A stretch of DNA of 64,000 nt from Candidatus Omnitrophota bacterium (lineage in GTDB: Bacteria > Omnitrophota > Gorgyraeia > Tantalellales > Tantalellaceae), in NCBI GenBank assembly GCA_043823005.1, contig JBDRBG010000013.1:25233-89232 (forward strand). The letters are read 5' to 3'. Below are positions 4,551 through 63,711 of this stretch, piece after piece. How positions within the stretch are numbered: position 1 is the stretch's first letter; each line of letters opens with the position of its first letter. The position numbers and the translations under genes are program-made. The notes under the pieces are model-generated. The model was given only the letters and a program-made list of their open reading frames with translations, made no database searches and had not been told where the DNA came from.

Positions 4551-4599
4551 CGTTGGTAGGGGAGGGGCATGCCCCTCCCTAAAAAGGATAAAGAAAAAA

Positions 4600-7446: not shown

Positions 7447-9915
7447 ATGTATACGCGTAACGAAAAAATAGTACCTATTCACATAGAAGAGGAGATGAAA
7501 GATTCCTATATAAATTATGCGATGAGCGTAATTGTAGGAAGGGCCTTACCTGATGTCCGCGATGGATTAAAACCGGTGCACAGAAGAATTCTCTATGCGA
7601 TGAAAGATATGGGGATAGTTTATAATAAACCCTTTAAAAAAAGCGCCAGGATCGTGGGAGAAGTTCTTGGGAAATATCATCCGCACGGGGATTCCGCGGT
7701 ATATGACGCGCTGGTAAGAATGGTACAGGACTTTTCTCTCAGGTATCCGCTGATTAACGGACAGGGAAATTTTGGATCCATAGACGGCGATCCTCCGGCA
7801 GCTATGAGGTATACAGAGGCCAGAACACAGCAGATAACAGAATGGCTTTTAAAGGATCTGGAAAAAGAGACAGTGGGTTTTAAAGCGAACTTTGACGGAT
7901 CGCTTAAAGAACCGGAAATATTACCGGCAGTTCTGCCGAATCTTTTGATTAACGGATCCAGCGGGATCGCCGTAGGAATGGCTACGAATATACCGCCGCA
8001 TAATTTAAGAGAGATAGTCGACGCTGTCTGTTACCTTATAGATAATCCGGAGTGCAAAGTAAATGATTTAATCAAAATAGTGACAGGTCCTGATTTCCCA
8101 ACAGGAGCCCTTATCTGCGGACGGGAACCAATAAGACAAGCGTATAGAACGGGAAGAGGCGCTTTAAAAATGCACGCGAAAGCGCATGTAGAACAAAAAA
8201 AACAGGGCAGAGAAAGCCTTGTGATAACGGAGATACCTTATCAGGTGAACAAGACAAGACTGATAACCGCTATAGTCGATCTGGTGAAAAACAAAAAAGC
8301 GGAAGGAATCGTGGATATCAGGGACGAATCGGATCGGGACGGAATGCGCATTGTCGTGGATATAAAAAGAGGGGTGAACGCGGAGGTTATCTTGAACCAG
8401 CTCTATAAACACACGCAGATGCGGGAGACTTTTGGGGTAATAATGCTGGCAATCGTTGATGGTCAACCCAGGGTTCTTAACCTTAAAGAAACTTTGGAGC
8501 TTTTTATAAAACACAGAAAAGAAATAATAACAAAAAGAACCAAATTCGATCTTAGACGGGCGGAAGAAAGGGCGCACATTCTTGAAGGATTGAAAATAGC
8601 GATAAAAAATTTGGATGAAATAATAAAAGTAATAAGGACATCCAAAGATCCGGAAACAGCAAAACAAAAACTTATGGAGAAATTTATACTGACAGAAAGA
8701 CAAGCGCTGGCAATACTGGCTATGAGGCTTCAACAGCTTACAAATCTTGAAACAGAAAAAATAGAAAAAGAATATCTGGAACTTCTTAAAACTATTGAAA
8801 GGTTACAAGGAATTTTATCCAGCGGAAAAAAAGTAATGGATATCATAAAAGAAGAGTCTTTGGAAATAAAAGAAAAATTCGGAGACGCAAGAAGGACAGA
8901 AATAACAACAGACGAGGAAGACATAGAGATGGAGGACCTTATAGCCGAAGAAGATATGGTAATAACCCTGAGTCACGCCGGTTATATCAAGAGGTTTCCT
9001 GTAAGCTCTTACAAGAGACAGAGAAGGGGAGGCAAAGGAGTCACAGGAGCAGAAACAAAAGAGGAAGATTTTATAGAGCACTTGTTTGTCGCGTCAACGC
9101 ATGATTATATGCTTATTTTTACAAGCGACGGCAAAGTGCACTGGATAAAGGTGCATGAATTGCCTCAGGCAGGGCGAAGAACAAAGGGACGTCCTATTAT
9201 AAACCTTTTGGGAATATCCAGCGGAGAAAGCATAACATCTGTTGTTCCTGTCAGAGAGTTTACAGAAGGACAATTTGTTGTTATGGCTACGGAAGATGGG
9301 AAAATAAAGAAAACGCCGCTCACAGCTTTCCGAAATCCCCGACAAGGCGGGATTATCGCCATAACTCTTGGCAAAGGAGATAAACTTATAGGATCTGTTC
9401 TTTCCAGCGGCGAGGATGAGATATGTTTGGCAACATCCGACGGAAAAGCTATCCGGTTTAAGGAAAAAGGGATAAGAGCCATGGGAAGAAGCGCTCAGGG
9501 TGTTAAGGGAATATCTCTGGGGAAAAAAGACAGAGTTATAGGGATGGTAAGAGTGGATTTGGAAGGAAACCTTTTATCTATAACGGAAAAAGGCCTTGGG
9601 AAAAGAACATCTTTTGAAGAATATCGATTGCAGGCAAGAGGCGGGAGCGGCGTAATAAACATGAAAATAGTGGAGAAAAACGGAAAAGTTGTAAGTGTCA
9701 AAGCCGTAAAAGACGAACACGAAATCATGCTTATTTCAACACAAGGTATGGTTGTAAGAGTCGCGGTTAACGGAATAAGCAAAATCGGAAGGAGTACCCA
9801 GGGCGTAAGGGTTATTAACCTGAAACCCGGGGATAAAATAACCTCTGTGGCGTATGTTGTCTCAAAAACCGAAGAAGAAGAGGAAGAAACTGTCGCGGGA
9901 GAAGAAGAATCATAA
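7447..9915 (+). CDS. gyrA: DNA gyrase subunit A
   Basis: The track ORF starts at 7408, but the conserved N-terminus [29 protein letters not shown] begins at the ATG at 7447 and is preceded by AAAGGA. It has the active-site region and an acidic C-terminal tail. Confidence 0.93.
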
Positions 9916-10263: not shown

Positions 10264-10302
10264 CCGTCTTTGCGAGGGAGCAAGAGCGCCCGCGGCAATC
10301 TA
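10264..10302 (+). repeat. family-1 intergenic repeat (CGTCTTTGCGAGG..GCGGCAATCT)
   Basis: CCGTCTTTGCGAGGGAGCAAGAGCGCCCGCGGCAATCT, preceded by the ACGGTTAACCGT palindrome module. Confidence 0.85.
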
Positions 10303-13286: not shown

Positions 13287-13365
13287 GAGAGAGAAACAAT
13301 TCAAAGGACTGTTTCGAAATACCCTAAAAGTGTCATGTGTCAAAAGCCAACTTTTGTCTTTGCGA

Positions 13366-13418
13366 GGGAGCGAAGCGACCGCGGCCCTCCTTAGGCGGAT
13401 CCGCCTTTGGCGGACAAT
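13366..13418 (+). repeat. family-1 repeat, long form
   Basis: GTCTTTGCGAGGGAGCGAAGCGACCGCGGCCCTCCTTAGGCGGATCCGCCTTTGGCGGACA. Confidence 0.85.
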
Positions 13419-18030: not shown

Positions 18031-21000
18031 GTGTTTAAAAAAGTATTGGTTCTGGTGGTAAGTTTTTTATTAATCAGTCAAAACATTCCGTGTTTTTCTT
18101 CTCCCATTTCGGCTCACTCTCAGCAAAACGTACAAATAACGACATTGTTTAATTTAGCTGATCAGGAAGACGCCTATACGGTGGCTTTAGCAAAATATTT
18201 TTTTGTTTTTTTAGATAAATTAGATACAACATTACAGGGAGCCGATTTTAAGAATGTTGAAAAATTAATTAAGGCGCGGGTCGAACAATTCCAAGACGGA
18301 GCAAAAACCCTCATTAAACACGAGAGAGAGACAAAAAAAGGAATTGTTGAAAAAAATTTGCCAATGATTAAGGTTGATGAAAGCGCAGGCGAACTGTTAG
18401 TTATTATGTCTGATTATATCGTTAGGTATTATAACCCAAAAACATCTAAGAAAGATCAAATTTTAGGAGAAGAGACATTCAAAGAATATTCTTATAAGGT
18501 TAGCGAAGAAGACGATATTAATGGTCGATTGAGAAAACAAATACTCCAAAGAGGGAAAGAACCAGTTTTGGTAAAGTTGCTAATGGAAATGCAAGACAAA
18601 AAAGAGCGGGATGTAACAATAGACGAAATAGCTCAGTTATTGTTATCCCGCAACGAACAAGAATATGTTCTAAGCCTGATGCTTTATATCTTAAATGCTA
18701 TAGAAGAAGTAGGCGAAGATTTTGTGGATGATAAGGTAAATAGGATTTATGAGCAGGCAGACAATATAATAAAGACTGTGGAAAAAAAACTTTTAGATAC
18801 AAAAGATATCAAAAAAAAGATAAAAAACGAATCGAATATAAGAGAAATGTACAGGCATAATTATCCGTTTATTCGCAGGAAAGCCGATGTGGATGGAAAC
18901 TTAAATGAAATAGTGATACATGTTGGAGAGTATGCTTTGCGGTATTATAATGGACAGACAGCGTACGCGAAATATGAGCTTGAAGATCCTGAAGATTCGA
19001 AAAACGCGGAACCGGTCTTTTATTCAGCTGTACAAGAAGGTCCAGTTGATGGGGCTCTACGGGTGCAATTGTTGAAAGTCGAAGACGACGCTGATGCTTC
19101 TCCGGCAGAAACTCCAATAATCTCTGCGGTAAACGCGAGAAACGAACAAAACAAAAGTAATTATCCTTCAGATATAAAACGAGAAGATCCGTATCTGTTT
19201 TTCAGGTTAAGAGAGTTAAGAATGCCTATATATTCGCAGAAAGATGATACTTATTATGTCTGGGATAACGACAGCGTGGAAAAAGTAGTCAAGATGCGGC
19301 ATGATATGGGCGATAACGACGAGAAACTGCCCCCAGTTATTCAGATTGATGAAATGGGTAATGTGAAAGATAGAGTAAAAGAAGAGACTCCGTTATATGA
19401 TATTAATTTCAGAGCAGACCGGCAAAAACAATGGGTCGGGGTAATCCTGGAGAAATCTTTGACCCCGTTTAAGGTAGCGTATCAAATACTTAAAGCAGTT
19501 CTTGTTGTGACCACACAATATTTGCCGATAGTGAACAGCGAAAACGTAATTTTGGAAAAAACAAAAGTGGAAAACGGACTTGTCGAAGTCCTGACCAGAG
19601 AAGGTATTTATGTCAAATATGTATTTGACGCTGAAAAAGGAAAATTTATTCCCGCGTTTAGAGGCGGGCAGGAAGAGCCTTTTGATAAGGAACTGGAAGA
19701 CCTGGAATTTGGATCGATTTCAATGCCTGTTTTAATGACAGAAGAACAATGCAACAAACACGATCCTGCTGTAAAAATGAGGTTAAAAGATAAATATATC
19801 GGCTGGTTTTATGGCGATGTTCCAAAAGGATTAAAGCAGATACCGAATAAAGAATACAGAAAATATCCCGGATTAAGTATGTTTGTTTTAGCCAGAGCAA
19901 CCGCGACAAAAATAAGAGAAGCCAAAGAAGGTACGTTTGGTCTTACTAATCTTGACGGCCCGGATTTAATAGGCCATGTCGCAGGAAAAGACGTCGAGAA
20001 AATAACAGATCTTTTTGTTGAAACCGAAGAAGGCAAATTTGAATTAAAACAAGGGAACGGTTGGGATTGTGTTCTGGAGTGTCTTAAAATAGCTGACGCC
20101 GGACTTAATCTTATGATGAAAGAAGTAGAGGATAAAGAAGGAGTTTTTATTCTTGTTGGAGACCATGGGTCTGTGGATGATATGCGTTTTCCAAATCATT
20201 CGGCTAATGATGTTCCGATATTTATAATAGATTATGAGAATGAAGATATAAAACTTGTAAAATCTACAGGGAGTCAAAAGGATACGCAAGCAGATGTAGC
20301 TGTAACGATCCTTCATGTTTTAGGTATTGATAAACCGACGGAAATGACAGGAAAAAGTCTTTTGCCGGAAGATTATAAAGGAAGAAAAGACAGGATAGTA
20401 TGGCAGGTTATCTTAGACGGGTTCGGGCATACAGACCTTGATCCAGAGCAAAACGCTTTTCTCCGGGCAAGGGAAAAAGGCATAACGCCTACGATCAAAA
20501 AATTATATGACATGAAAAATTATGTGCTTCTTAAAGCCGCGGGGATGTATGCCGGACTGCGCGGGGGATGGGTGGAAGAAATATATGAAATGAATCAACA
20601 AGCAAAAAAAGAAGGAGGGGTTCAGTATGACCCTCTGAAAAGAAAAGCAATGATAACTCAACTGGAAAGCACACAAGACAATTATTGGAAAAAAATAAAA
20701 ATAGTGAATTATGATTATCGGGATATTCCGCAGGCACAGCTGTTGTGTTCTTATGAAAACGGGTTGGACATTCTTAAAAGGTCCAGTTTACTGCAGGATA
20801 AGATGTTTCTGGTTAATTATGACCAGGAGCACTTTATGACAAAAGATATTCCGGACAGAACCGTCGAGGTAGTTTGTCTTGATCTCAGACAAATAGGGTC
20901 AACTGAATATAATACATGGACGCTTGGTGCCGGACGTATAGTTGAACAATCTATAAGGCGTATAGATAAAAGATGGCTTAATGGCACAATGCTTAAGAGT

Positions 21001-22224
21001 AAAGCTCTCCAAAATTTCACAAAACACGCAAAACAAGAAGGCTATGCTCATATAGTCGGCATATTGCAGGAAGCAGGCGTACATGCGTCCGCAAGACAGT
21101 TATATTGGTTAATAGAACATTTAAAAAGGAACGGGGTGAATAGATTTGTATTAGATCTGGCGACTGACGGTAGAGATGAAGGGGGCAGGGACTCTTTGAT
21201 CAGGATAAAAGAACTTAGAGCCGCTTTAAAATTTTATGGCATACAGGATAAAGATTATGTCTTAAATTTGCGGGGCAGGGAGATCTGTTTTGACAGGGCA
21301 AAGAACTGGAACTTAACAGAAGCATGGATAAATGAACTTGTCTGGGGAAGTAGAATAGATAAAAGCATCGGCGCCGGATATATAACGAAAGAACTGATTT
21401 TAAATAGCTATGAAAAGGGGAAAGAACTCTGGGAAAAAATGATTGAAAAACGCTGGTTAGTAAAGGTTAATGACGAAGAAGCTAAAATACAGGACAAGGA
21501 ATGGAGGGAGGACGGAGATTTCGGAGGAGGACTTGATGAATACAAAAACTCTATAGAAGGTATTTTAAAACAGTCCAGATTCAAAAAACTGCTGGATAAC
21601 GAAGGGATCGTTGCGAATATCCTGCGTAATGCTTTCAGCGCATTGAACGAGAACCAAGAAAAACAAATATTGGCTTTTGATCTGGAGCTTGGGAATAAAA
21701 AAGCAGGCAGGTTGATAAAACAGCTTGTACAAGCTATTGAAGAAATGAAACAAGACAATATATTAAATAAGATCCTGAAAAACATAGAGATAATCAAAGT
21801 CAATGGAGCGGAGTTAGGTAACAGACTGGATATTTTGACTAAGAGCGAAACGGGCATAAAAAAAGAGAACATTATCATTATAGCGAAAAAGACAAATAAA
21901 AACTATTTTACGGGATATGATAGCGTCTCGACAATAGCGTATATAGATGATTCGGAACTATCGAAAGAAGACCTTCTTCCATTACCCGAAATAACGCTTT
22001 TTGCAATAGCAAAGCATCTGGGGTGGAGTGCGGATAAATTAGAGCATCTATATGCGTGCATTTTAAATGCAGAAAGTGTTAACAGCTTAGCTGAATTTAC
22101 TGAAAAATTCGGAAAAGACAAAACTTCCTTTATTGTAAAGATTATCCCTAAAGCCGTTAGGTTTGATATGCAGGAATTAAAGGAAGTTGTAGATCAAATG
22201 GTCAGGATATTAAAATACGCTTAA
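18031..22224 (+). CDS. large secreted protein with an embedded iPGM-like / alkaline-phosphatase-superfamily metalloenzyme domain
   Basis: 1397 aa with a signal peptide. The segment from about 19870 to 20400 has NLDGPDLIGHVAG, LVGDHGS and KPTEMTGKSLL, matching iPGM C-terminal motifs (PDMVGH, ADHG, PAEMTGKSL). Confidence 0.7.
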   Translation: MFKKVLVLVVSFLLISQNIPCFSSPISAHSQQNVQITTLFNLADQEDAYTVALAKYFFVFLDKLDTTLQGADFKNVEKLIKARVEQFQDGAKTLIKHERETKKGIVEKNLPMIKVDESAGELLVIMSDYIVRYYNPKTSKKDQILGEETFKEYSYKVSEEDDINGRLRKQILQRGKEPVLVKLLMEMQDKKERDVTIDEIAQLLLSRNEQEYVLSLMLYILNAIEEVGEDFVDDKVNRIYEQADNIIKTVEKKLLDTKDIKKKIKNESNIREMYRHNYPFIRRKADVDGNLNEIVIHVGEYALRYYNGQTAYAKYELEDPEDSKNAEPVFYSAVQEGPVDGALRVQLLKVEDDADASPAETPIISAVNARNEQNKSNYPSDIKREDPYLFFRLRELRMPIYSQKDDTYYVWDNDSVEKVVKMRHDMGDNDEKLPPVIQIDEMGNVKDRVKEETPLYDINFRADRQKQWVGVILEKSLTPFKVAYQILKAVLVVTTQYLPIVNSENVILEKTKVENGLVEVLTREGIYVKYVFDAEKGKFIPAFRGGQEEPFDKELEDLEFGSISMPVLMTEEQCNKHDPAVKMRLKDKYIGWFYGDVPKGLKQIPNKEYRKYPGLSMFVLARATATKIREAKEGTFGLTNLDGPDLIGHVAGKDVEKITDLFVETEEGKFELKQGNGWDCVLECLKIADAGLNLMMKEVEDKEGVFILVGDHGSVDDMRFPNHSANDVPIFIIDYENEDIKLVKSTGSQKDTQADVAVTILHVLGIDKPTEMTGKSLLPEDYKGRKDRIVWQVILDGFGHTDLDPEQNAFLRAREKGITPTIKKLYDMKNYVLLKAAGMYAGLRGGWVEEIYEMNQQAKKEGGVQYDPLKRKAMITQLESTQDNYWKKIKIVNYDYRDIPQAQLLCSYENGLDILKRSSLLQDKMFLVNYDQEHFMTKDIPDRTVEVVCLDLRQIGSTEYNTWTLGAGRIVEQSIRRIDKRWLNGTMLKSKALQNFTKHAKQEGYAHIVGILQEAGVHASARQLYWLIEHLKRNGVNRFVLDLATDGRDEGGRDSLIRIKELRAALKFYGIQDKDYVLNLRGREICFDRAKNWNLTEAWINELVWGSRIDKSIGAGYITKELILNSYEKGKELWEKMIEKRWLVKVNDEEAKIQDKEWREDGDFGGGLDEYKNSIEGILKQSRFKKLLDNEGIVANILRNAFSALNENQEKQILAFDLELGNKKAGRLIKQLVQAIEEMKQDNILNKILKNIEIIKVNGAELGNRLDILTKSETGIKKENIIIIAKKTNKNYFTGYDSVSTIAYIDDSELSKEDLLPLPEITLFAIAKHLGWSADKLEHLYACILNAESVNSLAEFTEKFGKDKTSFIVKIIPKAVRFDMQELKEVVDQMVRILKYA

Positions 22225-22321: not shown

Positions 22322-22397
22322 GCCACGGTAGCTCAGTCGGTAGAGCAGGGGACTGAAAATCCCTGTGTCGGCGGTTCAATTCCGTCCCGTGGCACCA
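22322..22397 (+). tRNA. tRNA-Phe (anticodon GAA)
   Basis: GCCACGGTAGCTCAGTCGGTAGAGCAGGGGACTGAAAATCCC...GGTTCAATTCC...CCGTGGCACCA. Confidence 0.85.
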
Positions 22398-22400
22398 TTA

Positions 22401-22430
22401 AAAAAGGCTTTCTTAGGAAAGCCTTTTTTA
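22401..22430 (+). terminator. rho-independent terminator after tRNA-Phe
   Basis: AAAGGCTTTC/GAAAGCCTTT stem followed by a T-run. Confidence 0.7.
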
Positions 22431-22570
22431 ATGGTTAGTGTTATTTGCTGAGACATAAAAGTCTACTCGGAGCAAATAACACATGCTTTTGTCCGCATTA
22501 TTCACCTGTATCGTTCTAAAAAAGTTGACACTTTTTCTGTCGGAGCCGTCTCCTGACGGCGAACCTAATT

Positions 22571-22611
22571 CGTCTTTGCGAGGAGGAGCGTAGTGACGAC
22601 GCGGCAATCTC
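22571..22611 (+). repeat. family-1 repeat
   Basis: CGTCTTTGCGAGGAGGAGCGTAGTGACGACGCGGCAATCTC, preceded by the GAGCCGTCTCCTGACGGCGAACC module. Confidence 0.85.
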
Positions 22612-22874
22612 TTGTTTTTCAGGACAAGACACCATTTACCAAAGTTGGCTTAATTGTTCGTCTACAATGCAGAATGTAGGAAGAAAAAGGCTTCTTGCTA
22701 GAAGCTTTTTGTGGGATAGTGTTATTTTCTGCTTTACAAGTATGGATTTAGTATGCATTTAGGACTACAAATAAGAGCAAGTATGTAGTATAATAATGCC
22801 GCAAATGACCGGAGATGCTGCGTACAGGTTGTAACAAAAAACAAGTTAAAGAAAATTTGATATAAGGAGGGGAC

Positions 22875-23243
22875 ATGGCAAAAAAACGTATTCTGGTTAT
22901 TGATGATGAAAAAGGTTTTACAGAGCTTGTAGAAGAGGTTCTTTTGGATGCTGGTAAATATGAGGTTAGAATAGTTAATAGCGCTCATCATGCAGTGGCT
23001 GCTGCAAAGGAGTTCTTTCCGCAGTTAATCCTGCTGGATCTTATGATGCCGGAAATGGACGGAGCAGATGTGGCTGAAAAGATTAAGAAAGATGAGAGCA
23101 TTAAAGATATTCCAATTGTCTTTTTAACTGCTATGGTAACTTCAGAAGAAACAGAGATTGGAACCATAGGCGGGCATAAGTTCTTGGCAAAGCCTGTGGG
23201 GATCAGAGAATTGATGAGCTGTGTTGAGCAAAATATACGATAG
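22875..23243 (+). CDS. stand-alone response-regulator receiver (CheY-like)
   Basis: ILVIDDE...LILLDLMMPEMDG...KP receiver motifs with no output domain. Confidence 0.8.
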   Translation: MAKKRILVIDDEKGFTELVEEVLLDAGKYEVRIVNSAHHAVAAAKEFFPQLILLDLMMPEMDGADVAEKIKKDESIKDIPIVFLTAMVTSEETEIGTIGGHKFLAKPVGIRELMSCVEQNIR

Positions 23244-23445
23244 TTTTCCACTAAAATAACATAAGTTCTTTTCTTTTATAGAGAAGTATCTTAAGACTTA
23301 CCTTTTAGCCTCCTAAAAAATAACGCAAAATTAACACTTTAGCAACTGAAAATTAACCCTTTAATGGTATATTTAAGGCATAAAAAAGGGAGAGATGTTT
23401 CTCGTAAATAGTGCCTTGGGAATACAGACAACAAGGAGGGATTTC

Positions 23446-23832
23446 ATGGCAAAGGCTAAGATAAAAAAAATACTAATTGTTGATGATGAAAAAGATTTCA
23501 CGGAATTAGTAAAAACAGTTTTGGAAGAAACCGGCAAGTATATAGTGGAAACAGTGAATCATGGACAGCTTGCTCTTAGTGCGGCAAAAAATTTTAAACC
23601 GCATTTGATTTTGTTAGATCTTATGCTTCCGGATCTTGAGGGAGCTGTTGTTGCTGAACAATTAGGGGACGAAGGAAGCGGAGTCCAGGCAACGCCTGTT
23701 ATTTTTTTGACTGGGATGATAACTGTGGATGAAGAAAAAGAACGTGAGGGGAGTATCGGGGGGCGCAAGTTTTTAGCTAAGCCCGTAGGAATCAGGGAGC
23801 TTATAGAGTGTGTTGAACAAAATGTTTTGTAG
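23446..23832 (+). CDS. stand-alone response-regulator receiver, paralog of 22875-23243
   Basis: The ATG at 23446 follows AGGAGG, whereas the track ORF starts at 23395. It shares the C-terminal motif GGxKFLAKPVGIRELxxCVEQN with the upstream paralog. Confidence 0.8.
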   Translation: MAKAKIKKILIVDDEKDFTELVKTVLEETGKYIVETVNHGQLALSAAKNFKPHLILLDLMLPDLEGAVVAEQLGDEGSGVQATPVIFLTGMITVDEEKEREGSIGGRKFLAKPVGIRELIECVEQNVL

Positions 23833-23873
23833 GTAAATAGGGACGTCACCCGCCAGGGAGACGTCCCTATTTA
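23833..23873 (+). repeat. GACGTC-centred hairpin element (family 2), copy 1
   Basis: GTAAATAGGGACGTC-ACCCGCCAGGGA-GACGTCCCTATTTAC. The stop codon of the upstream gene lies in the left arm. Confidence 0.8.
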
Positions 23874-23947
23874 CATTAAGCTATTCTCCTGGTAAACTAG
23901 GAAAATATGCAGGCAAGTAATAATAGTTTCAAGCCAGAGATGTATTC

Positions 23948-24343
23948 ATGCTCAACAATTTGAACAAAAGAAAAGTTTTTGTTACGACACTTTACACAAG
24001 CATTTTTTTCTTGCTTGGAGTGTCTTTTTTGTTTGGGTCTTTTTTCTCTGGGATTTTAATGTTTTCATTGATAACAAGTCTTAAAATGCGACATCAGCAC
24101 AAAAACACAGCAGCAATCATTCTTTTAGTTCTATCCATACTATTTTTAGCATATCCCGGAACATTTATGACAGGAGAAACAGAGGATTTGTTCGCTGTAA
24201 AAATAATGCCGGTTATTTATCAAGAGCACTATCTAAAAGGAGAGGTCAGACAAATAAAAGGAAACATTGTTTTTTGTAAGCATGAAAAAATACCTTTTGC
24301 GCCTAAATGGGCGCTAGTCTTTTGTTTTAGCGGTAGTAAATAG
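23948..24343 (+). CDS. small membrane protein, hypothetical
   Basis: 131 aa with two or three TM segments. It lies between two identical hairpin elements. Confidence 0.4.
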   Translation: MLNNLNKRKVFVTTLYTSIFFLLGVSFLFGSFFSGILMFSLITSLKMRHQHKNTAAIILLVLSILFLAYPGTFMTGETEDLFAVKIMPVIYQEHYLKGEVRQIKGNIVFCKHEKIPFAPKWALVFCFSGSK

Positions 24344-24377
24344 GGACGTCACCCGCCAGGGAGACGTCCCTATTTAC
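24336..24377 (+). repeat. GACGTC-centred hairpin element (family 2), copy 2, identical to copy 1
   Basis: 42-nt identity with 23833-23873, including the embedded TAG stop. Confidence 0.8.
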
Positions 24378-24442
24378 CTACCCTATTTAATTCGTCCTTG
24401 AAAAAAAGGGCATTTAATTATACAATTTATCGGAAGGCCGGG

Positions 24443-24518
24443 GCCCGCGTAGCTCAGTTGGTAGAGCAAAGCATTCGTAATGCTTAGGTCGGTGGTTCGA
24501 CTCCACTCGCGGGCTCCA
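24443..24518 (+). tRNA. tRNA-Thr (anticodon CGT)
   Basis: GCCCGCGTAGCTCAGTTGGTAGAGCAAAGCATTCGTAATGCTT...GGTTCGACTCC...CGCGGGCTCCA. Confidence 0.85.
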
Positions 24519-25819: not shown

Positions 25820-26085
25820 AAAGTTACGATCAAAGGGGCTTATTTGTTTGTGCAGGATAACGGAGCCCAGCAAAGGGGATAAAAACTGCATTTAGAACAA
25901 CAGATATTTTCACGATTTTGCTCTCCTCGATGCCATTTAGTTTCACATGTCCAGTAACTTTGGCATTTTTCACAGCAAATAAGTTTTTTCTTCTTTTTTT
26001 GGGACATAGGGCATTCTCCTCTACATGGTATTTGAAAGCAGTAACATAATTATATAATGAAAAAGTTTTTATTTCAATACCAATC

Positions 26086-26120
26086 TGAGGGACGTCACCC
26101 GACAGGGAGACGTCCCTATG
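26086..26120 (+). repeat. GACGTC-centred hairpin element (family 2), diverged copy 3, fused to a family-1 repeat
   Basis: GAGGGACGTCACCCGACAGGGAGACGTCCCTATG is immediately followed by CGTCTTTGCGAGG...GCGGCAATCT. Confidence 0.7.
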
Positions 26121-26124
26121 TATA

Positions 26125-26160
26125 CGTCTTTGCGAGGGAGCACAGCGACCGCGGCAATCT
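26125..26160 (+). repeat. family-1 repeat
   Basis: CGTCTTTGCGAGGGAGCACAGCGACCGCGGCAATCT. Confidence 0.85.
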
Positions 26161-26238
26161 TAATAATAATATGGTTTCCCCCTTTAGTGGTTCGCAAAAA
26201 CGTTATGACACAATCTGATGACAAGGACGTGCCTCATA

Positions 26239-26266
26239 TTGACAAAAAAGACTCAATATGTATAAT
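26239..26266 (+). promoter_or_regulatory. candidate sigma70 promoter of the rnf operon
   Basis: TTGACA, a 16-nt spacer, then TATAAT, located 42 nt upstream of the rnfC start. Confidence 0.5.
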
Positions 26267-30483: not shown

Positions 30484-30488
30484 TCCGC

Positions 30489-30525
30489 TGTCTTTGCGAG
30501 GGAGCAAGAGCGACCGCGGCAATCT
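30489..30525 (+). repeat. family-1 repeat in tandem with the preceding copy
   Basis: GTCTTTGCGAGGGAGCAAGAGCGACCGCGGCAATCTC. Confidence 0.85.
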
Positions 30526-30564
30526 CTTTGGTGAATAGCGTCTTGTCTTGAAAGTACAGAGAAG

Positions 30565-34149: not shown

Positions 34150-34186
34150 CGTCTTTGCGAGGGAGCGAAGCGACCGCGGCAATCTC
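34150..34186 (+). repeat. family-1 repeat
   Basis: CGTCTTTGCGAGGGAGCGAAGCGACCGCGGCAATCTC, preceded by the ACGGTTAACCGTCAAC module. Confidence 0.85.
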
Positions 34187-34201
34187 AATAAAAAAATAAA
34201 T

Positions 34202-35170: not shown

Positions 35171-35261
35171 ACAAAAAATTAGTTCAGAGGGACACCCCAG
35201 GGATTGAAATTGGGACAGGTCTGGGATTAATTTCAGAACCGTCCCTGATTTCCGCTCTTCT

Positions 35262-35337
35262 GTCTTTGCGAGGGAGCAAGTGTGATTGCGTCAATTCTCC
35301 GTCTTCGCGAGGAGCGTGAGCGACGCGGCAAACTCGG
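35262..35337 (+). repeat. two tandem family-1 repeats, the first degenerate
   Basis: GTCTTTGCGAGGGAGCAAGTGTGATTGCGTCAATTCTC followed by CGTCTTCGCGAGGAGCGTGAGCGACGCGGCAAACTCGG. Confidence 0.75.
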
Positions 35338-35686
35338 ATAGAAATAGAATAAAAAGAAAAAATAAACCACAGAGAGCACAGAGGCACAGAGGGGGAAATA
35401 AGGCGCCTTTGGCGCCGTTCACGGGTCAAGGGTGAAGGGAAAGCGCTTCATCCGTCATTGGAGGAGTGTAGATATTAGGGACGGTTCTGAATTTGAACCT
35501 ACACCTGTCCCAAAATTAATCCCACACCTGTCCCCTAACCGTCGAAAGTTGGGTTTTGAATGGCTCTGTGACTCAGAGGCTCTGTGGTGAAAAATCTGGA
35601 AATCGGTCTTTAAAAAAGTGAATCGTCGTTAGTGAATGGTGAATAGTGAGATTGCCGCGGTCGCTCGTGCTCCCTCGCAAAGACAG
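35338..35686 (+). repeat. upstream flank block of the giant gene: modules Y (CACAGAG-rich), Z and X (CTCTGTGACTCAGAG-containing), then an inverted family-1 copy
   Basis: Shares long stretches with 50840-51072, for example ...AGAAATAGAATAAA..AGAAAAAA..CAGAGAGCACAGAG.CACAGAGGGGG and TTGGGTTTTGAAT.GCTCTGTGACTCAGAG.CTCTGTGG.GAAAAATCTGGAAATCGGTCTTTAAAAAAG. Confidence 0.75.
35648..35686 (-). repeat. family-1 repeat, inverted orientation
   Basis: GAGATTGCCGCGGTCGCTCGTGCTCCCTCGCAAAGACAG. Confidence 0.85.
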
Positions 35687-35707
35687 AAAAGGAGGAATGA
35701 CCCATTT

Positions 35708-35750
35708 CGTCATTGCGAACCCTGAGCCAAGCGAAGGGTGCGGCAATCTC
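35708..35750 (+). repeat. family-1 repeat, diverged
   Basis: CGTCATTGCGAACCCTGAGCCAAGCGAAGGGTGCGGCAATCTC. Confidence 0.7.
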
Positions 35751-35820
35751 TAGAAAAAGTAAAAAAAAGACAGGGCTGGGAGTGGATTCAACCTGTTTTC
35801 AATCTTCAGGAAAGCTTTCA

Positions 35821-35850
35821 TTAGACTAACTAGCTTTTCCGTGATATAAT
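35821..35850 (+). promoter_or_regulatory. candidate promoter of the giant gene
   Basis: TTAGAC, an 18-nt spacer, then TATAAT, located 75 nt upstream of the ATG at 35926. Confidence 0.35.
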
Positions 35851-35925
35851 GCACGAAATATTTTTGCAAATAATGCATATATATTAGAAAATGTTAATAA
35901 TCAATACGAATAATATAACGAAACA

Positions 35926-38900
35926 ATGATACGACATCAAACAAAATACAAATTCTGGATAAAAAGTATCACAATAGCTGTTTTATGTTTGTTTGTGGTA
36001 AATGATTTTGTGTTCGCGATTAATACTATTAAGGAACGAATGCCAAAATATACATTAGCGCCTGTTTCGCGGCTTAGCCCTATGGTGACAATCACAGGAA
36101 CAGGCAAGGACTTGTCTATTGTCGAAGAATTTTCTGACATATCTAATTTAGCCGAAGAATTTAAAAAAGACATTAGTTTTTCTTATATAACGCAGTTAAT
36201 CTCCCAGGTATTAACTGATTATGGCGTTAAAATTACTGCTCAAGGATTAATAAAACTTATCAGTCAGGATCTTGCTCATATTGATTTTAAAAAATACAGA
36301 TTTGACGGATTGTATCAGGATGAAGAGGTTTTTTATCTTCCCTGTTGTCTAAGCTGTATGGGAAAAGAATGGGAAAACAAGATTTACCTCAGGTATTATC
36401 CTAAAAAATATAAACCCCAAGGATCTTTTGATGAATATAAAGTTTTAAAAACGATTGATCTGAAAAGCGAAGAAATTATTTGTGAAGTATGTTGTTTGAA
36501 AAAAGATAATCCTGAGATATTGCAGAAGTTTGTTCTTGAAAACCCGCAGAAAAAACCCGAAGACAAGAAAAACGACATGATAGATACGCGTCCTGTTAAA
36601 GCTAACCTTCTTCACGAACTATACGTCGAACATGACATGGCAGTTAAAGAGATTATAAATCTTGAAAACAAACTATTAACAGCTGTATATGGCGGAGCAG
36701 GAGCAGATATATCGAATTTTTTATTGTCTACTAACGCGCAAAAAGGATATTTTATTTCACAATATAAAAACTTTTGGTCAGAACTATCAGCACAAGACCT
36801 GAAAGAATGTTTCGAGTCTCTCAGTGCAGAAGCATATATAAAAAAATATTGCAGTAAATGGTACTCTAAAAGTAAATATCATGATGGTTATGGAACTGCC
36901 GCGTTTATCTGGACTAATTGGCAGATAATAGCAGCGCTGGCTTTAGAGCTAAAAGCAATAGGAGTTGATCTAAGCACAGTTAAAGTGATCAAAGAAAAAG
37001 GATGTCCTGCAATACAATTTAAATGGAATTATTCCGGGGCAGAAGAAAAAGAATATAAAATAATTTTTGTAAATGCGGATATAACACGTCCTGAAGAATA
37101 TCAAGACATATTAAAGGACGAGAAAATAGACATTTATTATCAGCGCGCAGGGCTTGAAATCGCAAAAAATTATAAGAAGAAAACGAAAAGTTTTATTAAT
37201 TTTATTAACCAATGCATGAGAAAAGATGGATATTATGTTACAGATGATAATATCTGGTCTTCATTTTGGTTTATAAAGGCTAAGACTCCGCCTTTTCCAG
37301 TGAAAGCTAAAGAAATAAAAACCCCCAGAATTATAGACATGGACAAAAAGGTCCTAAAATTACGGAAGTGGTGTTTTCTGGCAGCAGATAATATTAAGGC
37401 TTATGGAGTTTGCGTAAATATCAGAAAAAAGCTTGATACGGAAAACGAACAAGATATTAATAATAATATCGATCAGCGCCTAGTTAAAGCCGGTCTTCTC
37501 CACGAACTATATGTCGAACATGATATGGCGGTTAAGGAAATAGTCAACCCGGACAATAAACCCTTAACAGTAGTATATGGCGGAGCAGGAGCTGATATAT
37601 CAAATTTTCTTTTGTCTACAAACGCTATAAAAGCTTTTTTTGTGGATAAAGTAGAAATTGATATTGAAAGAATACAAAAGCTTAAATATGAAAGCTGGGA
37701 CAAGCTAGAGCAACTTATAGAACAGGTTAAAACAGAAGAAGGAGAATCTTACAGGGCGTATAAAGAACGGTTTGGGTATGGGATTACTTGGGGAGAAACA
37801 GAAGAAGAAAAAAAGGATCTGGAACTTCTTATTCTTTTTGAATTAAAAGCCATAGGAGTTAATAAAAACTCGATCAGGATCAGAAACAATAAAGGCTTTC
37901 CGGAGATCAAGTTCAAGTGGACTTATTTAAATGGTGTTCAAAAACAATATTCGATTACATTTATTAATACTGCTATTGATGAACCGGAAAAATACCCAAA
38001 ATTATTACAAGATGTCTTAAAGAAAAAAATAGATATTTATTATCAGAGAGCAGGTAATTATATTGCTTCTAATTATGAAAAATTCCTTCCTTTGATAGCA
38101 TCAAAATTAAAAGCGGGAGGATTTTTAATTACAGATGACTTTTTGCCTATTGGGACCAGCGGATCTTTTTTGAAAAAACTCGTACAAAAGCATTTAAAAG
38201 ATATGTATATAGCTAATCCAGATTTGCTTTTGGCAGATAAAGAGCGGTCAATTTTTACTCAAAAAGATGAAATGAAAAATGACAGGATAAAACAAGCGGA
38301 GAGAAAAATCATAGAAGATAGACAACGTTATGTAAAGGATAGCAGCGGCAATTTTTCCCACTATGGCTGGGATGTTCATTTGCGCCAAAAAATAAGGTCT
38401 GTGAATACTGTCAAACCGCCTCCGGGGACGCCTGCTACGTTATTAAAATATATGTATGATAACAAAATATTTAAGGATAACGCGAAAACAGCTATGGATA
38501 TGGCAGGGCAAAGAGGCGGCAAAGATAGCCTTTCTACAATATATTATGAACTAAACGTTTTAAGAAGAGTTGGTTTAGCGATAAAATCCGGGACAAGGTA
38601 TTATTTGCGGGAGGAGGCCATAGAGATGCTTCCGGAGACAATAATAAATGAAAACCCTGAATTAAATATTGCTTACCCTTCGGAACAAGAGAAAACCAGG
38701 ATGAAAGAGCGGCTCAAAACCGGGTTTTCTCCAAAGACAAAAATTGATTTTTTGCGAAACCAGGGTTTTATCGGGCCGAAAGATATTATGAACGAATTTG
38801 GCAGGAAAAGAAAAAAAGGAGAACAGCAGTTTTTATGGGACGATGTGACGGATCCTGCAAAACTTTTTATGATAAATAAACTTGCCGGAAGTTTTGGGAT

Positions 38901-41900
38901 ACAGCCGGGAGAATTAACCGTGGGCCATTTCATGAAGAATAGGGAAGTTTTTAACGGCAAAAACATTCGAAGTCTTATTAACTGGTTTGATGCAAAATCC
39001 GGATGTAACGGCAGTTATAAGGAAGCATTAAAAAAACTGAAACAATATTTTAAAATACAAGATTTAATAGACAGGCAAATTCAAACAAGTGAACTTTTGC
39101 GTTTAATAAGACAAGGAAGAGCAAAAGAGGGAATAAATATATGGGAAAGAAGCATAAAATCGGCAAAATTATTTGTTCTTCAAATAGTTTCCGCAAAGAG
39201 AAGAAAGAAGATAGAACAGTTAAATGTTTATGATATTAGGGGCGGATTAGCCTGTTTTAAAGGCAACGGTGTTTCAGGGATCATCGATTGGGCGATGCGG
39301 AAGTTTTACTGCAAAAACAGCAGTGGAGTAGGAGTTCACCGTTTGAAAAAGTATTTAGGCAAACAAGACAAGGTTCCTCCGCATCCGGTATTATGTTTAT
39401 TTTGTACGGATTGGGAAGAGGCGATTAAGTCCGGAGTATTGTCATGCAAGACGTTAGCCGAAGAAGTAAGAGCCGTAGATTTAAAGGTAAGAGAATCTTT
39501 TAACGGAGAGGATGAACCGCATTATAATGCCGAATATTTTTCAACTGTAAGAATATTAGAAAAAAAAGATTTTATATTGCCTGTTTTAAAACAATGGAGT
39601 GGAGCCAAAAACAAGATTGGGATTGAAAGCCTTATGCGGATATATTGCCGGCAAATAAGGCCCATATTATATGGGCTCGATGAAAAGAAAAAATCAGGTT
39701 GTGATAGTATTGATGTTCCATCCCGGAATCTTGTTTCGGAAAAGCCGGTTCCTGATAAGCAAGAAAACAAAATAATTTTTAGAGGAATCGGCAAAAATGA
39801 AGATATGGATTATACGAATCTTTTCAGGGATCTGGATGCGGAAACCAGGGCCTTAGGCTGGCCTTTAGCGCGCAGACAAAGATATTTAACCCTTTTAGCT
39901 TCTATTAATAGCCTTGAAAGTAGAATGAAAGAGCTGACAGAGCGGGAATTACAGGCAAAAACAAAGGAATTTAAGGCGAGATTAGATTTAGAAGAAACAC
40001 TTGACGATCTTTTACCCGAAGCTTTTGCTGTTGTCAGGGAAACCGCGCGGCGCGTAATAAACGAAAGGCCGCATGATATACAAATTCTGGCCGGTATAGC
40101 TATGCATGAAGCTAAAGGAATAGAAATGGATTCCAGCCAGGGCAAAACTTTGACCGCGATGATGCCGGCTTATTTAAATGCTTTGACAGAACGGGGAGTG
40201 CAAATACATACGACTAACAATTATTTAGCTAAAAGAGACGCCGATTATATCGGTCGGATTTTTGACTTTTTGGGCCTAACCAGCGGAGCTATTACTTCAA
40301 AAGGATCTTTTTTGTTTAAAAAAGAAGGTAATCCGCGGACAACAAGTAAAATAAGAAACCTTTGCGTATTACCGCACAAAAATCAGGAGGAAATCAGGGT
40401 TTCTAAAAGAAGGATATATAATACTGATGTTGTGTATGGTTGGGCGAGAGAAATAGTTTTTGATAAGCTTAAGGATGACCTGGCTGACGGAAGGGGCAAT
40501 CTGGTTCAAAGAAACCTTGCTCCGGAGCTTATTATTGTGGATGAAGCAGACAGCCTTTTAATTGATGAGAATAAAGACATGTTGGTTTTAGCCGCGCAAA
40601 ATAAGAACTTTTTTGAGAGAAGATTTTTTGAATTAATATATGACTTTTCCGGCCGTTATATTCCGAAAATAGATTACAGCGTCGATATATACGAAAGAAC
40701 AGTATCTTTAACAGGAACAGGGAAAGTTTTGATCGAAGAGCTGTTATTGGAATCTCCGGCGCTTAAAAAAATAGACAGAGAGTATCTTGTTCTATTAATG
40801 GAAAAAGCCCTGGAAATACAGTTTTACGCGAAGGATGAAGATTATACTGTATGTTCGGGGAAAAAAGTTGTTATTGTTGATAAGTATAGCGGCAGGTTAA
40901 AAGACGGAAATGTCTGGGAACATGGGGTACAGCAATTTATAGAAAAACAGGAAAAGACTGTTTTACATGAGATGATCTTTTCGGTGCATGAGATGACGTA
41001 TAAAAACTATTATGGGCATCAGGAGAAAATAGCTCCTATGAGCGCTACTCTTTTGAGCGAGGAAGAAGAAATATCAGCTAATTATGGAGTAGAAATAGTA
41101 AAGATGCCTTTGCGAGTAGAGTCAAGACGCGAAAATTTGTATCCTTTAGTTTTTTTAACAAAAGAAGAAAAAAGGGCCGCTATATGTAAAGATGTTCTAG
41201 CTATGCAAAAGAAAAGGCGTCCTGTTCTGATCGGGGTGTCAACTATCAGGGAAGCTGAGAATATAAAAAAAATATTGAATAAAGCGGGTATTTTTCCGGA
41301 AATTCTGGACGGTAGGAACGAAACGATTGAAAGCAGTATTATAGAACGAGCCGGACAGTGTTCGGGCGTAACTATAGTTACACCGGCCGGAGCAAGAGGA
41401 GTGCATATACGGCTTGGGCAAGGTGTTTCTGCGCGCGGCGGTTTGCATGCAATAGGAGGGGTTTTTTATGAGAACAAGAGAATGGAGGATCAATTTAATA
41501 AACGCGCGGCCAGAGGCGGAGACCCCGGAAGTTCAAGAAATTATATATCGTTAGATGAAGAGAATATACGGATTTTTGGAGGAGATGACAGAAAAAAACT
41601 AAAACAAGCCCTGAAAAACCTTGAACAATTGGGCCTTTCACAGGAAGAAGCGATTTTATCTTCTGAAGGCAGAGAAATAATAAGAAATATTCAACATTTG
41701 CTCGGCAGGATTCGTAAGCGGCAGGAAGATTACGTCAGGCGGTCAAGAGAACGATTTTTAAAATATGATGATATTATAGATCCTTTTAGGGAATGTTTTT
41801 TCTCTTTTCGCCGAAGCATTCTTGAACTTGAGGATGAGGGGGAAAGAAGAAAAACATTAAAACTGATTGATGATTTATGGATACGATGTCAATTGGATTT

Positions 41901-50718: not shown

Positions 50719-50803
50719 ACCCCGGAAATGGGGACGGTTGTTGTATACGCTCAATAATTTGGTAACATTTTTTAAGGGGGCCTTACTGCTAACTTCGTTT
50801 GTC

Positions 50804-50839
50804 GTCATTGCGAGAAGCAAGAGCGACGCGGCAAACTCG
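50804..50839 (+). repeat. family-1 repeat
   Basis: CGTCATTGCGAGAAGCAAGAGCGACGCGGCAAACTCG. Confidence 0.8.
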
Positions 50840-51072
50840 AATGAAAATAGAATAAAGAAAAAAAATTAACCTCAGAGAGCACAGAGACACAGAGGGGGGA
50901 AACAAACTGAGGCGAGAAGAGGGAAAAAAGATATTGTTGGGTTTTGAATAGCTCTGTGACTCAGAGACTCTGTGGAGAAAAATCTGGAAATCGGTCTTTA
51001 AAAAAGCGAATAGTAGTTGGTGCATAGTGGAAAGAGATTGCCGCGGTCGCTCAAGCTCCCTCGCAAAGACGG
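50840..51072 (+). repeat. downstream flank block of the giant gene, homologous to 35338-35686
   Basis: Modules Y and X and an inverted family-1 copy occur in the same order as upstream. Confidence 0.75.
51034..51072 (-). repeat. family-1 repeat, inverted orientation
   Basis: GAGATTGCCGCGGTCGCTCAAGCTCCCTCGCAAAGACGG. Confidence 0.85.
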
Positions 51073-51171
51073 ATGAGGTTCGCTTTCGGACGTGTCCTGC
51101 GCCTGAGCAACGCGAATGGAACAGGGAGATGGCTCCGACTAACGACCCCCGACTAACGACTAACGTGCCGG

Positions 51172-51250
51172 AATGGGGACGTTTCTGAAACTAATCCCAG
51201 ACCCGTCCCAATTTCAATCCCACACCTGTCCCCTAACAGTTGATAGGCAG
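51172..51250 (+). repeat. module Z (AATCCCAGACCCGTCCCAATTTCAATCCCACACCTGTCCCCTAAC)
   Basis: Direct copy of 35463-35550 and inverted copy of 35190-35250. Confidence 0.7.
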
Positions 51251-51358
51251 TTTGTAGATGGTCCTGAAACTGATGCAGTAGATGTCCCTAATATAAAAAT
51301 CACTTGCGTTGTTTAGCGTTATTTGATAGAATCACAGCTTACAAGAATCACATTCTAT

Positions 51359-59250: not shown

Positions 59251-59340
59251 ATCTTTTGATCTTTTTTCTTTTTATTGAGAGGGCATTGACATTCTCTAGG
59301 CTCGCGTCTCATGATCAGGCTATGTCGCAATTCAGATTTC

Positions 59341-59378
59341 GTCTTTGCGAGGGAGCAAGAGCGACCGCGGCAATCTCC
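59341..59378 (+). repeat. family-1 repeat
   Basis: CGTCTTTGCGAGGGAGCAAGAGCGACCGCGGCAATCTC. Confidence 0.85.
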
Positions 59379-63567: not shown

Positions 63568-63711
63568 ATAAATGGGGACGAGTGTACGCGCTCAACAATT
63601 AAGTAACAGTTCTTAAGGGGGTACTTCCTGCTAACTTCGTCTGTCGTCATTGCTGGAGCATGAGCGACGCGGCAAACTGGGTGGGAAGTAAATGGTGACG
63701 TCCCCATTTAT
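63568..63711. mobile_element. MITE-like 144-bp element with perfect 13-bp terminal inverted repeats
   Basis: ATAAATGGGGACG at 63568-63580 and CGTCCCCATTTAT at 63699-63711. The interior carries a family-1 repeat copy and is homologous to 50725-50840. Confidence 0.6.
63644..63680 (+). repeat. family-1 repeat inside the MITE-like element
   Basis: CGTCATTGCTGGAGCATGAGCGACGCGGCAAACTGG. Confidence 0.75.

Follow-up and report, generated by a model that had tools for sequence, protein, structure and literature searches.

Two identical palindromes at gene ends in an Omnitrophota chromosome resemble GTAG-tagged REP sequences

Introduction

A 42-nt palindrome, GTAAATAGGGACGTCACCCGCCAGGGAGACGTCCCTATTTAC, occurs in two exact copies on the plus strand of a 64-kb stretch of Omnitrophota DNA (the window), on either side of a gene for a small membrane protein of 131 amino acids. 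The copies, designated HP1 (23833-23874) and HP2 (24336-24377), are assigned with moderate confidence to a REP-like family of short palindromic repeats resembling the GTAG-tagged superfamily. This assignment is based on the exact repetition beyond chance, on the very stable hairpin, on the GTAG at the feet and on the positions at gene ends. It is further based on the insertion that holds a third copy, on the widened interval between tRNA-Phe and tRNA-Thr, on a palindrome within the tsaD gene of another Omnitrophota lineage, on the core of a palindrome in contig L045, on arm sequences that recur in a MITE-like element elsewhere in the window, and on a C-terminal extension (SGSK) of the 131-aa open reading frame.

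REP sequences have been divided into two superfamilies, tagged either with GTAG or with CGTC (Di Nocera et al. 2013, PMC3733652). The GTAG REPs were described as palindromes of 20-40 bp with a GTAG end and stems of 6-13 bp, located mostly less than 20 bp after the 3' ends of open reading frames, with sites between divergent genes forming a minority class (PMC3733652). Intragenic copies were identified in several species, and the GTAG termini "often provide the stop codon (TAG)"; most dimers are inverted, with a spacing of 1-100 bp, a head-to-tail arrangement being rare (PMC3733652). For the TnpA-REP system, the GTAG located 5' of the hairpin was shown to be a recognition and guide element (PMC8266576).

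The window covers an origin-proximal part of the core chromosome with dnaA, dnaN, gyrB, gyrA, six tRNA genes, the rnf operon, purine genes and the gene for enolase, and nearly all of its genes are on the plus strand. The intergenic regions are packed with G+C-rich repeats, foremost of the family CGTCTTTGCGAGG...GCGGCAATCT. No transposase, integrase, recombinase, HUH enzyme or RAYT is encoded in the 64 kb. The features discussed below are listed in Table 1.

Table 1. Coordinates of the hairpin copies and of neighbouring or related features in the window
Feature	Position	Strand	Description
tRNA-Phe(GAA)	22322..22397	+	left conserved anchor of the variable interval
tRNA-Phe terminator hairpin	22394-22435	+	A-tract/T-tract
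Lineage-specific interval	22436..24395	+	about 1.96 kb, between tRNA-Phe terminator and tRNA-Thr promoter
Second stand-alone response-regulator receiver gene	23395..23832	+	likely start 23446, 128 aa (NCBI annotation)
HP1	23833..23874	+	palindromic 42-nt repeat, 15-bp perfect stem, loop ACCCGCCAGGGA with inner CCC/GGG, no T-run after it
Candidate promoter	23870..23898	+	TTTACA-17-TAAACT with TG; consensus match only; -35 overlaps last bases of HP1
131-aa ORF	23948..24343	+	divergent member of a small protein family
HP2	24336..24377	+	second copy, identical to HP1
Outer right-arm duplicate CCCTATTTA	24381..24389	+	13 nt downstream of first occurrence (24368-24376)
tRNA-Thr promoter	24398-24426	+	TTGAAA-17-TACAAT
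tRNA-Thr(CGT)	24443-24518	+	right conserved anchor
HP3	26082..26123	+	diverged copy; 9-bp stem, left outer arm replaced, 79% identity
MITE-like element	63568..63711	+	terminal inverted repeats TAAATGGGGACG; ends ATAAATGGGGACG / CGTCCCCATTTAT resemble hairpin arms

Sequence, Fold, and Flanks of HP1 and HP2

HP1 and HP2 are spaced 503 bp apart in direct orientation. The number of exact pairs expected by chance was zero (100 shuffles). The pair had been noticed in an earlier, sequence-only reading, in which HP1 was ended one base too early, at 23873; the exact identity itself is real. On folding, the 15-bp perfect stem proposed there was seen in both copies, followed by an A.A mismatch, an inner CCC/GGG stem and a 4-nt loop. 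The arms follow the pattern GGGACGTC-N12-GACGTCCC, with 15 nt each and a 12-nt spacer, the outer stem being A/T-rich and the inner stem G/C-rich. A folding energy of -31.8 kcal/mol (z = -7.7) was obtained, and the reverse strand is equally foldable. The hairpin copies, three including HP3 and two of them identical, carry no covariation, and Rfam searches at gathering and permissive thresholds returned only tRNAs and sub-threshold chance matches.

The identity of HP1 and HP2 ends abruptly at 42 nt, and the flanks have no significant similarity. Their sole likeness is a GTAG on the immediate 5' side of each copy, with a 1-nt offset at HP2. At the foot of HP1 it occupies 23829-23832, where it is read TTG TAG; at the left foot of HP2 it occupies 24333-24336 and shares 1 nt with the repeat. 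HP2 is followed by CTAC (24378-24381), which is GTAG on the minus strand and lengthens the stem with a 1-nt bulge to -38.5 kcal/mol. The additional copy of CCCTATTTA further downstream could be what remains of an arm, or else ancestral sequence. A target-site duplication was found at none of three sites, the flanks being ..TTTTGTAG / ATTAAG.. for HP1, ..GCGGTA / CTACCC.. for HP2 and ..GTGTT / CTAATT.. for the element at 63568.

Both hairpins are located at a stop codon, with a promoter-like site 0-20 nt further on. The receiver gene ends with TTG TAG, its stop being the TAG of the GTAG at the foot of HP1. The earlier reading had placed this stop within the left arm of HP1; the in-frame codon (23830-23832) lies directly 5' of the repeat, and the TAG at 23838-23840, within the arm, is not in frame with the receiver gene. 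For the 131-aa ORF, the stop codon (24341-24343) does lie inside the left arm of HP2, as had been read.

The tag is not confined to these two hairpins. A further GTAG-tagged hairpin follows dnaN (4555-4579), and among the Omnitrophota loci examined, GTAG was the top-enriched 4-mer at hairpin feet, with 8 observed against 1.6 expected, of which only about five are independent.

A Third Copy in an Inserted Segment

HP3 is a diverged copy of the hairpin, in which the 28-nt core (26089-26116) differs from HP1 and HP2 by one change in the loop. A repeat of the CGTCTTTGCGAGG...GCGGCAATCT (CGTC) family starts within 2 nt after it and covers 26125-26172, in agreement with the earlier description of a diverged copy near 26086-26120 joined to a family-1 repeat. 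HP3 has no GTAG, and no gene has its 3' end there. It lies between two divergent promoters, in a conserved promoter region which extends from a small minus-strand ORF (25840-26007) to rnfC (26308).

In three related contigs (L060, L061, L062), two conserved blocks of this region, TTTATTTCAACCA and ATTGACAAACAA, are about 30 nt apart, compared to about 145 nt in the window. The insertion of 115-140 nt consists of HP3, the CGTC repeat and further sequence. At the same spot, L059 and L063 have unrelated insertions of their own; that of L059 is a short palindrome, and that of L063 is made up of other repeats over about 140 nt. Since HP3 lies inside an insertion when compared to four related contigs, the hairpin sequence is primarily an inserted repeat and not an ancestral terminator.

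The Interval Between tRNA-Phe and tRNA-Thr

HP1 and HP2 are part of a larger variable interval. For the comparison, relatives were chosen via the downstream MFS transporter, which has 70-74% identity in other Omnitrophota, and five contexts were compared. The order common to them downstream is MFS, a small Cys-rich minus-strand ORF, rnfCDGEAB, purN and eno, from which L062 departs between MFS and rnfC. Homologues of the receiver protein were of no use as synteny anchors, being too common, too distant (at most 56% identity) and placed in unrelated contexts.

The distance from tRNA-Phe to tRNA-Thr is 92-130 nt in L059, L060 and L062 and about 2 kb in the window, and on this ground the sequence from the tRNA-Phe terminator up to the promoter of tRNA-Thr is lineage-specific. 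It contains CGTC-type repeats (22537-22611), two receiver genes, HP1, the 131-aa ORF and HP2. The tRNA-Thr promoter, TTGAAAAAAAG...TACAAT, is kept in all relatives. HP2 ends 20 nt ahead of its conserved -35 element, which is the slot occupied by the tRNA-Phe terminator in L062 and L060. The repeat is thus DNA that was inserted or copied into intergenic spots, as is seen directly for HP3 and, for HP1 and HP2, at the level of the whole interval.

Related Palindromes Elsewhere

Within the window, the arms TAAATRGGGACG of HP1 and HP2 recur as the inverted ends of the MITE-like element at 63568-63711. The right end of this element is a loop-less palindrome, TAAATGGTGAC|GTCCCCATTTA. A related left end was found at 50725, and both 50725 and 63568 are 7 nt past a stop codon. 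The likeness of the element's termini to the hairpin, suggested earlier, was borne out by the terminal inverted repeats and the arms in common, and judged by their sequence the hairpin arms are related to these terminal inverted repeats.

Outside the window, an exact-pattern scan of 185,579 species genomes, the source genome not being among them, gave 42 single-site matches, attributed mostly to chance or to GC-rich genomes. With a loop-specific pattern, only two other sites were identified in metagenomes, a palindrome in tsaD and a T-run terminator. One match among viral contigs was taken as chance, and nothing relevant was found in plasmids and phages. Paired hairpin copies were present at no locus in the species-genome, metagenome or viral-contig scans.

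Of the two metagenomic sites, the first is found in another Omnitrophota lineage (L016, L029, L043), where a palindrome identical at 35 of 42 positions lies in-frame in tsaD and corresponds to a 14-aa addition relative to E. coli TsaD. That it was inserted is not certain; it might have arisen in place, since its right arm overlaps conserved coding sequence. At the second site (L006, L044, L045), a core identical at 27 of 28 positions stands 38 nt past an outer-membrane-like gene, with an A-tract on one side and a T-run on the other. In L045, the core palindrome has an apparent canonical terminator arrangement.

The 131-aa Membrane Protein Gene

The ORF between the hairpins codes for a protein that has two hydrophobic stretches, residues 10-45 and 51-76. 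Its coding score is the lowest among the genes of the window, and a word-indexed search retrieved only the 94-aa annotation of the source itself. By an exhaustive HMMER search, three remote relatives were identified, P0122 (37%, E = 3e-12), P0123 (32%) and P0124 (25%), so the question whether homologues exist elsewhere could be answered in the affirmative. The matches span residues 18-126, which indicates that the length of 131 aa is right. The ORF is a real, though very divergent, gene for a membrane protein.

In all three contexts, the homologue is located directly downstream of a gene whose product is a membrane protein about 130 aa long; these upstream partners are homologous to one another. 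The two genes form a conserved module, and in the window the 131-aa ORF stands alone as a displaced member of it; a partner gene was not found in the 64 kb. Neither flanking hairpins nor direct repeats are present at the three homologues.

GGTAG, together with the TAAATAG of HP2, codes for the last four residues of the ORF (SGSK) and for its TAG stop. The C-terminus is thereby 4 aa longer than those of P0122 and P0124, P0123 having a C-terminal extension of its own. Since it is the hairpin foot that codes for these additional residues, the foot of HP2 seems to have replaced the original stop codon, and the extension would fit with a repeat that landed on it.

Could the Hairpins Be Ordinary Terminators?

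The earlier reading had compared the arrangement to a duplicated terminator or a cassette. In the first case, a local terminator would have been copied with a rearrangement and kept identical by gene conversion or selection, without being mobile. HP1 and HP2 are indeed in a terminator-type position, at the end of a unit and ahead of the next promoter. As in intrinsic terminators, a G/C-rich stem is enclosed by complementary A/T-rich arms, after stop codons and directly before promoters, and the architecture matches that of the A-tract/T-tract terminators in the window at 13246, 14070, 22394 and 51440. The nearly identical core in L045 is a T-run terminator.

The T-tract, however, is poor. With a T-run defined as at least 5 T in 8 bases, none follows the main stem, the tails past the full stem being ATTAAGCT for HP1 and CTACCCTA for HP2, and the tail of the G/C-rich core, TATTTAC(A), has only 4 T in its first 8 bases. 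Terminator activity of HP1 and HP2 is uncertain on this account. The other terminators of the window are all unique sequences, so that exact repetition is not the rule among them. Three further observations speak against plain terminators, namely the location of HP3 between divergent promoters, in an insertion absent from the relatives and away from any gene end; the presence of a palindrome of the same family inside the coding sequence of tsaD; and the arms in common with the MITE-like element. A purely non-mobile origin is therefore considered unlikely, though the fit of HP1 and HP2 to terminator positions stands. Under the REP-like reading, too, HP1 and HP2, once placed, probably serve as a terminator or as an mRNA 3'-end hairpin ahead of the promoters.

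Could the Gene Be a Mobile Cassette?

The second explanation, a hairpin-bounded mini-cassette, supposes that a 503-bp unit consisting of the ORF and one hairpin was inserted at an ancestral single hairpin of the form GTAG-stem-loop-stem-CTAC, located between the receiver gene and the tRNA-Thr promoter, which left direct copies on both sides. Two routes of entry are conceivable, a circular intermediate recombining through the hairpins and a single-strand reaction of the IS200/IS605 type with the same-orientation hairpins as left and right ends. The ends of IS200/IS605 elements are known to be same-strand hairpins (PMC8266576).

This would account for the direct orientation, the 42/42 identity and its sharp end, and for the lineage-specific tRNA-Phe/tRNA-Thr interval in which the unit lies. 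GTAG on the outer side of HP1 (23829-23832) and CTAC on that of HP2 (24378-24381) complement each other, and if one 503-bp unit were deleted, the remaining hairpin would again have a perfect 19-bp stem, with -41.8 kcal/mol. However, HP2 has a left GTAG of its own, so a 50-nt family consensus accounts for the complementarity just as well. The absence of the partner gene, which the homologues follow in three other contexts, likewise speaks for a cassette. Against it, the composition of the ORF is native-like (GC 0.34, GC3 0.31). Furthermore, the ORF is very diverged and the hairpins are identical, which fits a recent copying of the hairpin better than an old joint transfer.

A search for supporting loci gave neither an empty site nor a second cassette nor paired copies in any public match. 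The nearest relatives (70-74% identical in MFS) are without receiver genes, and no empty site of the 503-bp unit was found among them. A second copy of the 461-bp segment was present neither in the window nor in the phage and plasmid collections. The 64 kb are devoid of a recombinase or transposase gene, and the hairpin is devoid of integron attC core sites. A cassette is thus held to be quite unlikely. The broader idea that REP-type hairpins act as recombination or transposition ends, by which single genes are excised and reinserted at any hairpin copy, is considered improbable. If true, it would amount to gene capture without attC or integron integrase at a tRNA-flanked variable site in Omnitrophota.

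Several known classes of elements were compared with the arrangement. With integron cassettes it has in common a promoter-poor small ORF followed by an imperfect palindrome; unlike them, it has no core sites, no extrahelical bases, no IntI and only one "cassette". An attC site was rejected, since the outer ends are GTAAATA ... TATTTAC as compared to RYYYAAC/GTTRRRY and no integrase is encoded in the window. A Xer/dif-like site was rejected for the wrong core motifs and for the 12-nt spacer between 15-nt arms, and a CRISPR because only two repeats, 503 bp apart, are present. Integration at a tRNA 3' end would also seem unlikely: the insert lies between two tRNA genes, but contains no integrase gene.

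As in MITEs, the arms resemble terminal inverted repeats, in this case those of the element at 63568-63711, and inverted ends are present in the HP1-HP2 segment; a MITE was rejected for this segment for want of a target-site duplication. As in IS200/IS605-derived (PATE-like) elements, two same-orientation hairpins bracket a short segment, but TnpA is not encoded in the window, and HP1 and HP2 are perfect and identical and not distinct left and right ends. Unlike both MITEs and PATE-like elements, the segment carries as its "cargo" a membrane protein gene of a conserved family instead of a transposase remnant, with no target-site duplication. The tRNA-Phe/tRNA-Thr interval, variable between conserved flanks, would resemble a minimal-mobile-element site, a type of site known, alongside NIME-dRS3 arrays, from Neisseria.

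The Possibility of an Assembly Artefact

Since the source is a metagenome-assembled genome, and since repeats and palindromes can confuse assemblers, a mis-join or loop at the 42-nt palindrome might have produced a bracket that does not exist in the cell; this is very hard to credit, as 42 nt is shorter than usual final k-mers or reads, both junctions are unique sequence, the ORF runs continuously into HP2 with a homologous C-terminus, and the register of the conserved tRNA-Thr promoter that comes next is as expected.

Comparison to REP Sequences and a Possible Mechanism

Like GTAG REPs, HP1 and HP2 are palindromic, carry GTAG at one foot, and have a TAG stop provided by the tag or the arm. 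Both are located at, or a few bases from, the 3' ends of ORFs in gene pairs of the same direction. Their stem has an internal irregularity, the A.A mismatch, as is found in REPs, and a CGTC-type repeat family is present alongside. A relative's copy lies inside a coding gene, as do some REPs. Finally, REPs have already been reported from bacteria of the Planctomycetes-Verrucomicrobia-Chlamydiae (PVC) group, in the Planctomycetes/Verrucomicrobia species R. baltica and O. terrae (PMC3733652).

Differences have to be noted as well. The stem of 15 bp is longer than the 6-13 bp of GTAG REPs, the loop has 12 nt, and the total of 42 nt exceeds the range of 20-40. The head-to-tail arrangement over 503 bp differs from published REP dimers, HP3 is untagged, and no RAYT gene is present in the 64-kb window. 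Only three copies were identified in the window, all of them within 2.3 kb. REP families, in contrast, are as a rule recognised by copies in the tens to hundreds. Omnitrophota are included in the PVC group. A likeness also exists to the Rickettsia palindromic elements (RPE), in that the member in L016, L029 and L043 lies in-frame in the essential tsaD gene and adds about 14 residues in a loop. However, the copies in the window are extragenic or overlap only a stop codon, and RPE are longer, with about 100-150 bp.

Under the REP-like reading, the following course of events may be proposed. The palindrome would spread by a single-strand, hairpin-recognising enzyme of the RAYT or IS200/IS605 type (HUH Y1 transposase) encoded elsewhere, or by recombination between copies, and HP1 and HP2 would have become identical through recent copying or gene conversion over 503 bp. 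A copy at the end of a gene would be transcribed as a very stable 3' stem-loop, which may protect the upstream mRNA. The stem-loop may also halt, at least in part, read-through into the next promoter, that of the ORF after HP1 and that of tRNA-Thr after HP2. In addition, the hairpin and its GTAG foot would supply stop codons, as in GTAG REPs.

Conclusions

The REP-like reading changes no general concept, and a wider interest would arise only under the cassette explanation. The locus nevertheless provides a comparative example in which palindromic repeats have entered both a conserved promoter region and the spacer between two tRNA genes, where they occupy positions normally held by terminators. 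It is also relevant for annotation: such repeats give rise to stop codons, lengthen ORFs and lead to spurious or truncated gene calls, as illustrated by the membrane protein gene, which is annotated with 94 instead of 131 aa. A description of such repeats in Omnitrophota was not found in a literature search. If the REP-like reading is true, tagged REP-like palindromes would reach into this poorly studied, uncultured phylum.

Insertions in the tRNA-Phe/tRNA-Thr interval and upstream of rnfC

The spacer between tRNA-Phe(GAA) and tRNA-Thr(CGT) extends over about 2 kb in the window (22398-24442), whereas it comprises 92-130 nt in three related Omnitrophota contigs, L059, L060 and L062, identified by their MFS transporter homologues. 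In two further contigs of this kind, L061 and L063, still other content is present upstream of tRNA-Thr. On comparison of these sequences, the interval looks like an insertion hot spot flanked by conserved sequence. Upstream of tRNA-Phe, the window codes for a 1397-aa protein (18031-22224) of unusual architecture, with iPGM_N and Metalloenzyme domains in its C-terminal half only.

In the conserved region upstream of rnfC, L059 (~7540-7590) and L063 (~8540-8690) contain independent insertions (alignment columns 128-245) at the exact point at which the diverged third copy of the hairpin is located in the window. The L059 insert is a short palindrome, GTAG-TACCCCCCGGGGGT-GTAG, and the one in L063 consists of other repeats (~140 nt). 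The window also contains a 55-aa Cys-rich ORF on the reverse strand (25840-26007), located between MFS and rnfC. Since L059, L060 and L061 each have a gene call of 61-64 aa at this position, the ORF probably represents a real small protein. It is preceded by a near-consensus promoter (26077-26049), which points away from that of rnfC (26239-26266).

The GTAG motif was also identified at other hairpins. L059 carries a hairpin, GATCAGCC ccg GGCTGATC (358-380), immediately after a homologous stand-alone receiver gene (47% identity) which ends in GGG TAG. The layout of a GTAG stop plus hairpin is the same as in the window, although the stems are unrelated. In the window, a GTAG-tagged hairpin, GGTAG-GGGAGGGGC-at-GCCCCTCCC, is present at 4555-4579, 10 nt downstream of the dnaN stop.

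The family of the 131-aa ORF

The 131-aa membrane-protein ORF located between the first two hairpin copies is a member of a small uncharacterised family, found elsewhere as part of a two-gene module without Pfam match. There, the family members always directly follow a homologous membrane protein of ~130 aa. The motifs IYGYPS and ILGGC, conserved in the family, have been lost from the window copy. At 94 aa, the window gene is probably annotated too short in NCBI.

Coordinates of the compared features (CGTC repeats: among others)
Feature	Sequence	Coordinates	Remark
Short tRNA-Phe/tRNA-Thr spacer	L059	5801-5892
	L060	5775-5904
	L062	2359-2473
Two-gene module	L050	3563-4338
	L053	5532-6363
	L055	5654-6450
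tsaD palindrome	L016	1324-1371	in-frame within tsaD
	L029	567-614	in-frame within tsaD
	L043	2865-2908	in-frame within tsaD
CGTC repeat	window	10264-10301, 13355-13402, 22571-22611, 26125-26172, 30488-30526, 34150-34197, 59340-59389, 61225-61272
	window	35648-35686, 51034-51072	(-) strand
Mosaics bordering 4930-aa ORF	window	35171-35925, 50719-51358

A related palindrome in tsaD

In other Omnitrophota MAGs, a palindrome was identified within tsaD. The L016 copy, GGGAAAAATAGGGACGTCACCCGCG.GGGTGACGTCCCTATTTTTCCC, is a perfect palindrome of 48 nt and shares 35/42 identical positions with the window hairpin. Like Rickettsia palindromic elements (RPE), the palindromes of L016, L029 and L043 lie in-frame within a coding gene. 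They directly follow the HxxxH motif and account for ~14 extra residues compared to E. coli TsaD. Because the right arm and the conserved coding sequence for P-x-F-P-F overlap, the palindrome may instead have been formed in place by inverted duplication.

Repeat mosaics of the window

An abundant repeat of the window, CGTC(T/A)TTGCGAGG...GCGGCAATCT(C), is present in both orientations. With CGTC at its start, followed by an AT-initial stem (ATTGC...GCAAT), it is similar to the CGTC-tagged superfamily of repetitive extragenic palindromes (REP) described by Di Nocera et al. (PMC3733652).

A 4930-aa ORF (35926-50718), which contains an internal 300-nt repeat (at 39957 and 44940, 72% identity), has repeat mosaics of ~650-750 nt at both ends. 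Several modules are common to both mosaics, in the same or inverted order (repeat families D11-D13, D15 and I2).

The elements at 63568-63711 and 50725-50840 share a module of ~110 nt, AAATGGGGACG...TACGCTCAA.AATT..GTAACA..TTAAGGGGG..CTGCTAACTTCGT.TGT, with a CGTC repeat after it. In the former, TAAATGGGGACG (63569-80) and TAAATGGTGACG (63689-700) form direct repeats around 108 nt, and its right end consists of a palindrome without loop, with the same arms as the window hairpin. One possibility is a palindrome split by a nested insertion. In the window, the CGTC repeats are often fused with other modules, and the resulting arrays are BIME-like mosaics, clusters of REP-type repeats.
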